DNA from: a virus
IMG/VR virus record: IMGVR_UViG_3300043137_000281
Strand: one strand, 5' to 3'
DNA: 64,000 nucleotides
The notes beneath the pieces are model-generated. The model saw only the letters and a list, made by a program, of their open reading frames with translations. It did no database searches and was not told the origin of the DNA. The position numbers were made by a program, and so were the translations under genes. Of this stretch, positions 43,609 through 45,201 are shown one piece after another. How positions within the stretch are numbered: the stretch's first letter is position 1; every line of letters starts with the position of its first letter.

Positions 43609-43728
43609 CTTATTAGAAGAACACACAAGATATAGAATAGTGTTGGCGCACTACCGTTCGCTACTCGCCAAAGTAACCGAACCGCCGATTGGGCTAAAAC
43701 CGTCTAATGTGTTCATCTAATAAGTCTT
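43609..43728 (-). repeat. About 120-bp structured element with roughly 17-bp terminal inverted repeats, copy 1, fused to the 5' end of tRNA-Ala (candidate small stable RNA or processing element)
   Basis: CTTATTAGAAGAACACACAAG...CTAATGTGTTCATCTAATAAGTCTT. The termini are reverse-complementary. About 85% identical to copy 2. Confidence 0.5.
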
Positions 43729-44065
43729 TGTGAAGCATGAGATTACTGCTTCTAATTGAGTGCCTTTGGTCATTACCGAGTCCCTTGCGAGGATCGTTCT
43801 ACCGTTATCCACTAAAGTCCTTTCGGATTCTCTAGTATCACTCAGTGCTGCCTTTTTTGAGGTCTGGCGTTTGACCTATCATGCTACGCTATTCGTCCCT
43901 CAATCTTCCGTTTGCCTTGCGAGCAATTCGGTTCCGCTAAGAACCTACGTCTTCAATCCGAACAATCACATCATCCTTGCGGGAATCCGTGAACCCAATT
44001 CACTTCCGTGTCAGGTATTAAGCACCTTTCACATAGCACTGGAGCAGACTTTCGCTTTTGTTATA

Positions 44066-44140
44066 CAAACCAGGAATTGAACCTAGATCGACAGTTTAAG
44101 AGACTGTTGTCTTACCATTAGACAATTTGCGAACCTACCA
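44066..44140 (-). pseudogene. tRNA-like pseudogene/fragment inside the non-coding island (intact D, anticodon CTT-loop and T arms, but no pairable acceptor stem)
   Basis: Minus-strand GTCT-AATGGTA-AGAC, ACAGT-CTCTTAA-ACTGT and CTAGG-TTCAATT-CCTGG arms. The flanking 7-mers are not complementary. Confidence 0.35.
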
Positions 44141-44751
44141 AGAAGTGCTGCTCCAGCAGATCCATATCTTGTTAGATACGGAATACTACACTCCTCATGT
44201 CTTTTACCTTGCGGGCTACTCAACGGCACTTCTAGTTTCCCCTCATCGGTTCTACTATTGTGCTACCGCTTTGCCTTTCCTTGCTAGGTCAGACTTAGCG
44301 ATTACCCATTAGTTTTCAGCATTCGCGAGTTTGGTTCGATACAGCTAGACCACCACAGTCTATTAGAACTCACCGACTGGCTCTGTTCGTATCCTTTCGG
44401 ACTTATATCACTCACTTACTGCCTACCGCCATTCTACTGACGGGAGATGCTTTCGGTAATGCCGAGACATCTCTAACTTGGGCTTGCATAGATGAACCAT
44501 TACTGGCGCAGTTACGTAGGAGTCCCTGCTTTGGCCGCATTACTGCGGTTATTCTAACGAGGCTATGCCCCCAATTCTTATTCTCTACTTATACACCACT
44601 TTATGGTGTTTGTAAATACTTTTTTGAAAAATATTTACGAGAAACTAGGCCCGGGATATTTTACAAGCATACGGGCGGCGCTTGCCGTTTTGTTTACAAC
44701 GTATAATCTGTTAGGGTATATACGTTGGTTCAGCAGACGGTACTGCTTATC

Positions 44752-44826
44752 TGGTTGCAGGAGTCGGACTTGAACCGACGACCTTCTGGTTATGAGCCAG
44801 ACGAGCTACCACTGCTCCACCCTGCG
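44752..44826 (-). tRNA. Initiator tRNA-fMet(CAT)
   Basis: About 85% identical in layout to E. coli tRNA-fMet, including the C1:A72 mismatch and CTCATAA loop: CGCAGGGTGGAGCAGTGGTAGCTCGTCTGGCTCATAACCAGAAGGTCGTCGGTTCAAGTCCGACTCCTGCAACCA. Confidence 0.8.
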
Positions 44827-44832
44827 TCAAAC

Positions 44833-44907
44833 TGGCTCCCTAAGATGGATTCGAACCACCGACCAATTGATTAACAGTCAACTGCGCTACCGCTGCGCCA
44901 TTAGGGA
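44833..44907 (-). tRNA. tRNA-Asn(GTT)
   Basis: Acceptor TCCCTAA/TTAGGGA, D GCGC/GCGC, anticodon loop CTGTTAA, T-loop TTCGAAT, encoded CCA. Confidence 0.75.
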
Positions 44908-44996
44908 ATATAAGCACCTCACGTCTTGGTGCTTACGTCAAACATTCTCGACAGACTCCATACACCATACGGTATGCGAGTAGTTTGACTATAAAA

Positions 44997-45072
44997 TGGT
45001 GCCCCCACGACGACTCGAACGCCGGACCTGATGATTACAAATCAACTGCTCTACCAACTGAGCTATAAGGGC
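44997..45072 (-). tRNA. tRNA-Thr(TGT)
   Basis: Acceptor GCCCTTA/TGGGGGC, anticodon loop TTTGTAA (one mismatch in stem), T-loop TTCGAGT, encoded CCA. Confidence 0.65.
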
Positions 45073-45076
45073 AAGA

Positions 45077-45201
45077 CTTATTAGAAGAACACACAAGATA
45101 TAAAAAGGTGTTGGCGCACCAATCGTTCGCTATCCGCCAAGATAACCGATCCGCCACCTCAATAGGCTAAGATCGTCTAATGTATTCATCTAATAAGTCT
45201 T
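45077..45201 (-). repeat. About 120-bp terminal-inverted-repeat element, copy 2, fused to the 5' end of tRNA-Thr
   Basis: Same termini and internal GTTGGCGCAC...CGCCAA hairpin as copy 1. Begins 4 nt from the tRNA-Thr 5' end, as copy 1 does from tRNA-Ala. Confidence 0.5.

Follow-up and report, generated by a model that had tools for sequence, protein, structure and literature searches.

Bacteriophage T4 encodes two stable RNAs, species 1 and species 2 (rnaC/rnaD), among its tRNA genes, and these RNAs are transcribed together with the tRNAs and freed by the nucleases of tRNA processing. The T4 tRNA-cluster precursor is a substrate of RNase III, which has also been reported to act on species 1. 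Phage tRNA islands are in addition a known setting for GOLLD (Rfam RF02032), a giant RNA described by Weinberg et al. (2009) and resolved by cryo-electron microscopy by Kretsch et al. (2025; PMC12286853), in whose linker a tRNA-like insert is a known occurrence. One such RNA, env-38, is 833 nt long, forms a 14-mer nanocage, and lies downstream of a Met-tRNA (PMC12286853). Here, we analyze a stretch of 64,000 nt from an uncultivated virus (IMG/VR record IMGVR_UViG_3300043137_000281), referred to below as the window, in which two paralogous elements, A and B, are placed directly before tRNA genes, with a GOLLD RNA lying between them. Each element is a clamp-helix module, comprising a long closing helix of nearly fixed sequence and a variable interior. 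It is likely that these elements belong to a family of transcribed, structured RNAs.

Element A (43605-43728, minus strand) lies between the GOLLD 3' end and tRNA-Ala(UGC) (43529-43604, minus strand), and element B (45073-45201, minus strand) lies between a leader hairpin and tRNA-Thr(UGU) (44997-45072, minus strand); each tRNA begins directly after the helix of its element. Both have a class-I interior, with B being 5 nt longer, and they are the two copies of the element in the 64-kb window. The original prediction, which was made from the sequence alone, had described two similar repeats of about 120 bp with 17-bp inverted termini, each starting 4 nt from a tRNA, and all of this is borne out. 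The elements are 85 to 89% identical (89% column identity in a MAFFT alignment that includes the flanks), and the arm CTTATTAGAWGAACACA occurs four times in the window (positions 43609, 43708, 45077, and 45181), in two inverted pairs, against 0.57 occurrences expected from shuffled sequences. A repeat finder independently recovers both the paralogy of A and B and their inverted arms. The 4 nt that separate the repeats from tRNA-Ala and tRNA-Thr pair with 4 nt on the far side, and we therefore set the element boundaries as given above, so that the helices abut the tRNAs and end at tRNA position -1. In element A, the strands of the closing helix are found at approximately 43701-43728 (5' strand) and 43605-43632 (3' strand). 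On the minus strand, the predicted folds reach -45.5 (A) and -49.7 (B) kcal/mol, far better than those of shuffled sequences (z, -5.35 and -6.66), with weaker folds of -39.6 and -40.5 kcal/mol on the plus strand.

The closing helix spans 24 to 28 bp (20 to 24 bp and an extension of 2 to 6 bp), is AU-rich, and has a nearly fixed sequence (CUUAUUAGAUGA.../...UCUUCUAAUAAG). Across 42 distinct elements, 95.2% of the cells at 24 tested helix pairs are paired, compared to 40 to 49% when the partners are slid. Changes on both sides are seen at 16 of the 24 pairs, including all 13 that lie outside the 11 pairs fixed by our search pattern (24 nt with the U.U). Examples of such compensatory arm variants are CUGAUUAG/CUAAUCAG, CUCAUUAG/CUAAUGAG, CUUUUUAG/CUAAAAAG, and CUUAUUUAAUGA/UCUUUAAAUAAG. 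Nearly all copies retain a central U.U mismatch, at the tenth position, by which the two arms become asymmetric. In addition, the flanks of the copies are complementary to each other (AAGA/UCUU, CAAA/UUUG, and UAGA/UUUA) and extend the helix. The conservation of the helix sequence suggests that it is a recognition site for a sequence-specific partner. In three loci (L110, L118, and L093), we also observe that AAUAAGUCU just 5' of the element can pair with the element's own 5' arm (AGACUUAUU), giving an alternative small hairpin. This hairpin could either be what is left of the 3' arm of another element or represent a competing structure.

Three observations indicate that the functional form is a single strand of tRNA polarity, and most simply RNA. 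Within the variable part of the helix, G.U pairs outnumber A.C pairs by 74 to 9. The covariance model scores 10 to 20 bits higher on the tRNA-sense strand for nearly every copy, the match being listed on one strand only for window element B and its ortholog in L001. Finally, all 63 tRNAs near the elements, in 58 distinct contexts, are on the same strand as the element, with none antisense. Element A itself is matched by model R1 (43605-43728) at 55.8 bits on the minus strand versus 40.4 bits on the plus strand. For element B, the only match listed with this model is on the plus strand (38.4 bits), and the missing minus-strand listing is probably due to its long insert; we assign B to the minus strand on the basis of its better minus-strand fold, its G.U pairs, and its GAUGA/UCUUC asymmetry. 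The ortholog of element B in L001 is 96% identical and likewise sits before tRNA-Thr.

Within the helix, we distinguish approximately 28 interior classes of 69 to 128 nt that are unrelated to one another yet individually structured, so that the helix is the only part common to all. The class-I interior of the window elements is a three-hairpin junction, with covariation in every hairpin. Two of the hairpin loops of element A show loop-loop (kissing) complementarity (43643-43671, minus strand), with UUGGCG at 43666-43671 facing CGCCAA at 43643-43648. An internal GTTGGCGC...GCGCCAAC hairpin had been proposed for this region; the 6-nt complementarity is real, but it joins two hairpin loops rather than forming a hairpin of its own. 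All six of its pairs are kept in seven class-I sequences, and in a relative, L113, two of the pairs are changed on both sides (CUGGCA/UGCCAG). The interiors of the other classes also contain compensatory pairs and almost no broken pairs within classes. Hairpins resembling a T-arm are present in 7 of the 28 classes, with class I being without one.

Relatives of the window were obtained via its neighboring SPFH gene, and every GOLLD-bearing one displays the same order of GOLLD 3' end, a gap of at most about 12 nt, element, and tRNA-Ala. These relatives share the same termini (CTTATTAGATGA ... TCTTCTAATAAG) around wholly different interiors of 70, 85, or 99 nt. Scans with both arms recovered 43 stretches from viral contigs (one locus being matched by both scans) and 39 stretches from metagenomes, and the pooled set contains 101 elements with 46 unique sequences in the 58 distinct contexts. 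The search for copies in other phages that the original prediction had proposed has accordingly produced around 100 further copies in related genomes, and a covariance model of the helix found additional divergent ones, for example, before tRNA-Thr in L004 and L060. Exact-arm scans of 185,579 bacterial and archaeal species genomes returned no element. Near and distant DNA searches of deposited phages gave only tRNA matches or chance hits, and chance hits were all that a distant blastn search with element A returned from 50,697 phage records. Permissive Rfam searches (E ≤ 5 and E ≤ 10) of the window, of the loci of 21 relatives, and of element B alone assigned no family to the elements, the sole match on them being a chance hit to mir-872 at 18.7 bits. 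We also found no description of the arm sequences or of tRNA-island hairpins in the literature. The clamp-helix family and its modular, exchangeable design are apparently undescribed, while the GOLLD RNA beside it extends a known family by one member.

In 43 of the 58 contexts, the element is followed by a tRNA within 15 nt, the spacing usually being 0 to 13 nt. Upstream, we find a GOLLD 3' end (20 contexts), a promoter-like motif (12), the stop codon of an open reading frame (ORF) (7), a tRNA (6), or another element (2); tandem elements are seen in L093 and L098, and one copy sits before a GOLLD 5' end. Although element A matches the copy in L114 at all but 2 of 116 positions, the two have unrelated flanks, with similarity ending exactly where the helix begins. 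A B-type interior occupies the site of element A in L117, and one interior class occurs before tRNA-Ala, tRNA-Thr, tRNA-Pro, and tRNA-Glu. Conversely, the site before tRNA-Thr is occupied in different phages by at least five module types, of 77, 87, 113 to 121, 128, and approximately 170 nt. Near-identical copies in unrelated flanks, together with varied modules at a given site, show that the modules are exchanged as units between sites. The island gene order is also rearranged between relatives, and in the GOLLD-less relative L060 the element, tRNA-Thr, and tRNA-Ala are adjacent. The modules of approximately 170 nt are conserved (L002, 11178-11347; L024, 4517-4686; and L164, where the module follows GOLLD) and have no Rfam match. 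They share the core AGCAAUGG(C/U)UUAGGA..GGAAGCACC.GACUCCGAAAUUCGCUC and are enclosed by a diverged 20-bp helix related to the clamp helix (CUUAUUAAAU...), occupying the pre-tRNA-Thr site in L002 and L024.

The 1-kb island between elements A and B is, with near certainty, mostly a GOLLD RNA. This RNA has a total length of about 846 nt (43734-44579, minus strand). Its conserved 3' domain (43734-44196, minus strand) matches RF02032 at 194.1 bits, against a gathering score of 150 (E value, 5.6e-54), and the match runs end to end (model positions 1-416 of 416) over a model that spans the conserved 3' domain only. The variable 5' domain (44197-44579, minus strand; 383 nt, with the 5' end approximate to within about 5 nt) is 72 to 99% identical to the region upstream of the Rfam match in L001, L002, L004, and L024. 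We place its 5' end near 44579 because in L156 the start motif AAGAATTGGGGGCATAGCC comes immediately after an element. The linker contains a tRNA-Lys(CUU)-like cloverleaf (44060-44133, minus strand; detected by ARAGORN and, at 53 bits, by the Rfam tRNA model) with a weak acceptor stem (5 of 7 pairs) and no CCA. This feature had been read as a tRNA remnant without an acceptor stem; its tRNA likeness is confirmed, and both programs call the cloverleaf a full one.

The absence of a credible ORF from 43729-44750, also reported in the original prediction, stands and is explained by the island being mostly GOLLD RNA. Of the two origins then proposed for the island, a large noncoding RNA is confirmed by the Rfam search and a decayed tRNA subcluster is wrong, GOLLD being found in its place. 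The notion of the repeats as the borders of a single novel composite unit is likewise abandoned, as Rfam identifies the island as a known family unrelated to the repeats, an outcome that the original prediction had itself named as refuting. In length, position after a tRNA-Met, setting in a phage tRNA island, and possession of a linker tRNA, the window RNA matches known GOLLD RNAs, and we see no essential difference, except that in this phage group the clamp-helix module and tRNA-Ala replace the usual terminator. The canonical arm is absent from the 3' tails of all 19 other GOLLD RNAs examined, a set drawn without regard to the elements, and approximately 12 of these tails have, by hand reading, a GC hairpin followed by a T-run. 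We therefore reject the element as a general feature of GOLLD 3' ends and regard the association as specific to this phage group, since most other GOLLD RNAs are closed by an ordinary terminator. In L045, L046, and L048, what looked like a GOLLD 3' end was rejected as a false motif match in coding-like sequence. The approximately 170 nt that precede GOLLD (44580-44751) contain small hairpins and a promoter-like TTTACA-N17-TATAAG (44588-44616, minus strand; 17-nt spacer), which we read by hand as a candidate sigma-70-like GOLLD promoter and which was not flagged by a consensus promoter scan.

On balance, we favor the interpretation that each element is an RNA module that is transcribed along with GOLLD and the tRNAs and then excised from the tRNA-island transcript, its helix being a clamp for processing and stability. 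The modules would be transcribed together with their neighbors and released by tRNA-processing cuts at the adjoining tRNAs. Cleavage by RNase P at the tRNA 5' end would leave the module with a 3' terminus that coincides with the end of the helix, and an RNase III-like nuclease specific for double strands may also cleave at the central mismatch. By bringing the 5' and 3' ends together, the helix would enclose a small, independently folded domain; it would also set the following tRNA apart from the GOLLD RNA, mRNA, or leader before it and leave behind a nuclease-resistant small RNA. The interior would then be a variable payload, which in the window is a three-hairpin junction that the loop-loop contact would lock. 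Such modules would resemble species 1 and 2 of T4 as small structured RNAs encoded among phage tRNA genes. There is, however, no sequence similarity to the T4 RNAs, given that the distant blastn search with element A gave only chance hits, and species 1 and 2 do not form a family with a shared closing helix and interchangeable interiors.

Several points weigh against co-transcription and excision as the explanation of these elements. The identity of GOLLD, the helix, its strand, the family, its contexts, and the exchange of modules are shown, whereas we infer both transcription and processing from position alone and likewise propose the cleavage enzymes, any partner, and a payload function. 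In addition, genes for RNase III, Ro, or another obvious partner are not found among the best 25 of the 69 Pfam families matched by 100 window ORFs, which is also the scope of the further gene searches mentioned below. RNase P may cleave poorly where a helix is flush with tRNA position -1, and a selfish mobile element would also account for near-identical modules in unrelated flanks. With respect to sampling, loci L081-L160 were found with a 12-nt arm pattern, and the perfect arm conservation among them is imposed by that search; the unbiased evidence comes from a small number of independent phages (L001-L004, L024, L060, and L061) and from the divergent copies found with the model. Finally, genes that flank the island in the window recur on many of the contigs that carry elements; the family may therefore be confined to one phage clade, and its conservation may in part be due to relatedness.

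The helix could instead act purely in cis, as an RNase III site and/or a block to 3' exonucleases, around an interior that is functionless and drifting, an explanation that we consider unlikely but the main rival. A function of this kind would fit the helix being the sole part common to about 28 interior classes, the constant placement of the element at a boundary before a tRNA, and the terminator hairpin that follows the GOLLD 3' end in other phage groups, from which it seems that some 3' structure is needed. RNase III, as noted for T4, does act on tRNA-cluster precursors and on species 1 RNA, and a central mismatch in a helix of about 24 to 28 bp would suit its geometry. The RNase III processing stems of rRNA operons and of T7 early RNA are indeed similar in having a helix of more than 20 bp with a central irregularity that flanks a structured RNA, and in being placed between the units of a polycistronic stable-RNA transcript; at 20 to 24 bp and 2 to 6 bp of extension, the element helix has the roughly two turns of duplex characteristic of these stems. 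However, RNase III is not known to need as much as the 12-bp invariant sequence of the elements, interiors that keep their structure through compensatory changes, and kissing loops that covary in class I, are not expected of drifting sequence, in six contexts the element has a tRNA on either side and an additional processing signal would be superfluous, and tandem elements occur (L093 and L098). A more far-reaching reading is that the repeats constitute a cassette-like RNA system of an uncultivated-phage clade, in which a dedicated factor reads the invariant clamp helix and payloads are shuffled between fixed slots, coupled to the 3' (sometimes the 5') end of GOLLD. We put this forward as speculation with a low chance of being correct; its payloads could be GOLLD-associated adaptors or cargo, or else fast-evolving decoys against host defenses that target tRNAs. 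A Y-RNA reading would draw on YrlA (RF02553), which follows a similar logic in that its ends pair in a sequence-conserved, protein-binding helix under a variable and often tRNA-like module, as the T-arm-like hairpins in 7 of the 28 interior classes would recall. It fits the elements worse than co-transcription and excision: the window class lacks this hairpin, the helix sequence differs, and no YrlA model match was obtained on any element at E ≤ 5. Among the 25 listed Pfam families of the window ORFs, there is no TROVE/Ro family.

The original prediction had left open whether the repeats are small structured RNAs co-transcribed with tRNAs or miniature transposable elements, and the strand preference, the G.U pairs, and the covariation speak for the former. 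As non-autonomous mobile DNA elements akin to miniature inverted-repeat transposable elements (MITEs), they would carry terminal inverted repeats for a transposase or a homing nuclease, and their RNA structure would be incidental. They do share with Correia and MITE elements a size of 70 to 170 bp, conserved terminal inverted repeats, transcripts predicted to form long hairpins, and copies in unrelated flanks. Mobility of this kind would explain why element A and the L114 copy are near identical (2 of 116 positions) up to the helix base, why the same interior class precedes four different tRNAs, and why different modules occupy the pre-tRNA-Thr site in different phages, and an ORF resembling NUMOD3 endonucleases is present in the island. 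We nevertheless judge a MITE-like origin improbable. Target-site duplications were looked for, as had been suggested, and none are present, the flanks being complementary rather than direct repeats; moreover, the copies are restricted to tRNA islands, are always in tRNA sense (0 of 63 tRNAs antisense), and number just two per 64 kb, and their interiors are mutually unrelated, unlike those of MITE families. The strand-specific excess of G.U pairs (74 to 9) and the kept, asymmetric U.U mismatch also argue against it, and no transposase is found among the listed Pfam families. A mobile aspect does remain, since near-identical copies in unrelated flanks imply that the modules move or are exchanged. 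A single-stranded DNA recombination site like the integron attC, used for the capture or exchange of RNA-gene cassettes such as GOLLD or tRNA blocks, would also show a strand preference and a variable center between inverted repeats that are imperfect and conserve a mismatch; copies in direct orientation bracket the Thr-Asn-Met-GOLLD block of the window, the element, tRNA-Thr, and tRNA-Ala are adjacent in GOLLD-less L060, and island gene order is rearranged between relatives. This is very improbable, as the arms are without the GTTRRRY/RYYYAAC core, most RNA genes of the islands are without such a site, the structured and covarying interiors are not needed in attC variable regions, and no tyrosine recombinase or integrase is among the listed Pfam families. 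The least credible alternative is an intrinsic terminator or attenuator at the GOLLD end and the start of the tRNA operon, even though U-rich sequence (UUUU, UUUUUUUC) follows the helix in many copies and other GOLLD RNAs end with terminators. Those U's pair with the upstream A-run within the helix (columns 1-4 with 51-54), the base of the stem is AU-rich, the hairpin is 70 to 170 nt long with multiple branches, the promoterless tRNA that starts 0 to 13 nt downstream needs read-through, and a terminator scan flagged neither window copy.

If the elements are excised modules, as we favor, GOLLD in one phage clade would be embedded in a tRNA-punctuated transcript and bordered by modular small RNAs with a common helix. 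This would offer experimental handles in the form of GOLLD-module-tRNA precursors, a conserved helix to be used as bait for binding proteins, and a natural series of interchangeable structured domains. Even if the modules are only processing hairpins, they would help to annotate phage tRNA islands and to locate the ends of GOLLD RNAs.

The window derives from an uncultivated large phage whose genes include ribonucleotide reductase, T4-type RNase H, ThyX, and DNA ligase, and no close relative was found among deposited phages. It contains 25 tRNA genes between 41.3 and 48.5 kb, all on the minus strand, and the repeats and GOLLD lie inside this tRNA island. In minus-strand order, we observe a promoter/leader, element B, tRNA-Thr, tRNA-Asn, tRNA-Met, GOLLD, element A, tRNA-Ala, and further tRNAs, with tRNA-Asn(GUU) and tRNA-Met(CAU) occupying 44752-44907 (minus strand) between element B/tRNA-Thr and GOLLD. 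The leader 5' of element B (45202-45293, minus strand) can be read as three parts, namely, TTGACA-N17-TATATA (45293-45265), the conserved motif TTCTTTGACATCGTTAGAA (45255-45237), and a GC hairpin (45228-45202). The same arrangement is present in L002, and the leader motif is found 5' of the element in 12 of the 58 contexts. More generally, the motif TTCTTTGACAT(C/T)GTTAGAA occurs upstream of RNA genes at many loci, and in the window at 45237-45255 and approximately 48543-48560 (minus strand) and at 42889-42906 (plus strand); it probably acts as a promoter or regulatory site that is phage specific.

Two inter-tRNA spacers of the island, 43440-43528 (Ala-Leu) and 44908-44996 (Thr-Asn), both 89 nt and on the minus strand, fold as closed hairpin modules (z, -3.3 and -3.7) and may be further small structured RNAs. 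The Ala-Leu spacer is kept after tRNA-Ala in L002, L004, and L024. At 94 nt, tRNA-Ile(UAU) (43176-43269, minus strand) is unusually long for a class-I tRNA and may contain an insertion or a long variable arm; its orthologs in L004, L093, and L115 measure 91 to 94 nt. Relatives L024 (7462-7536), L045, L046, L048, and L068 encode a tRNA with anticodon CUA, called tRNA-Pyl by ARAGORN. Such a tRNA could suppress amber codons, and its presence hints that stop codons are reassigned or suppressed in this phage group. In addition, manA RNA motifs (RF01745) share the tRNA islands of the elements, at distances of a few hundred nucleotides, in L081 (1819-1991), L110 (4952-5124), and L118 (5159-5328). A permuted tmRNA of alphaproteobacterial type is encoded on the element-bearing contig L103 (11219-11698), and a GapR homolog is encoded within the window tRNA island (48026-48262, minus strand); both point to an alphaproteobacterial host.

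The ORFs of the island encode products that resemble PF04308 RNase H-like proteins, GapR, NUMOD3 endonucleases, SPFH proteins, and AdoMet decarboxylase, none of which is demonstrably linked to the elements. The PF04308 (YkuK/DUF458) ORF lies between tRNA-Val and tRNA-Trp (41357-41797, minus strand), has homologs in 15 of the 80 arm-pattern loci (L081-L160), and possibly encodes a nucleic-acid-processing enzyme of the island. The NUMOD3-motif, homing-endonuclease-like ORF is found at the upstream edge of the tRNA island (48600-49121, minus strand) and has homologs in 26 of the same 80 loci. Three ORFs of the 2OG-Fe(II) oxygenase type and two TET-associated glycosyltransferase (TAGT) ORFs, including those at 42462-43085 (plus strand) and 40159-40701 (minus strand), suggest enzymatic hypermodification of DNA bases. 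Finally, the window encodes CsgG and CsgF (curli secretion) domains and an OmpA-like beta-barrel, which are unusual for a phage.

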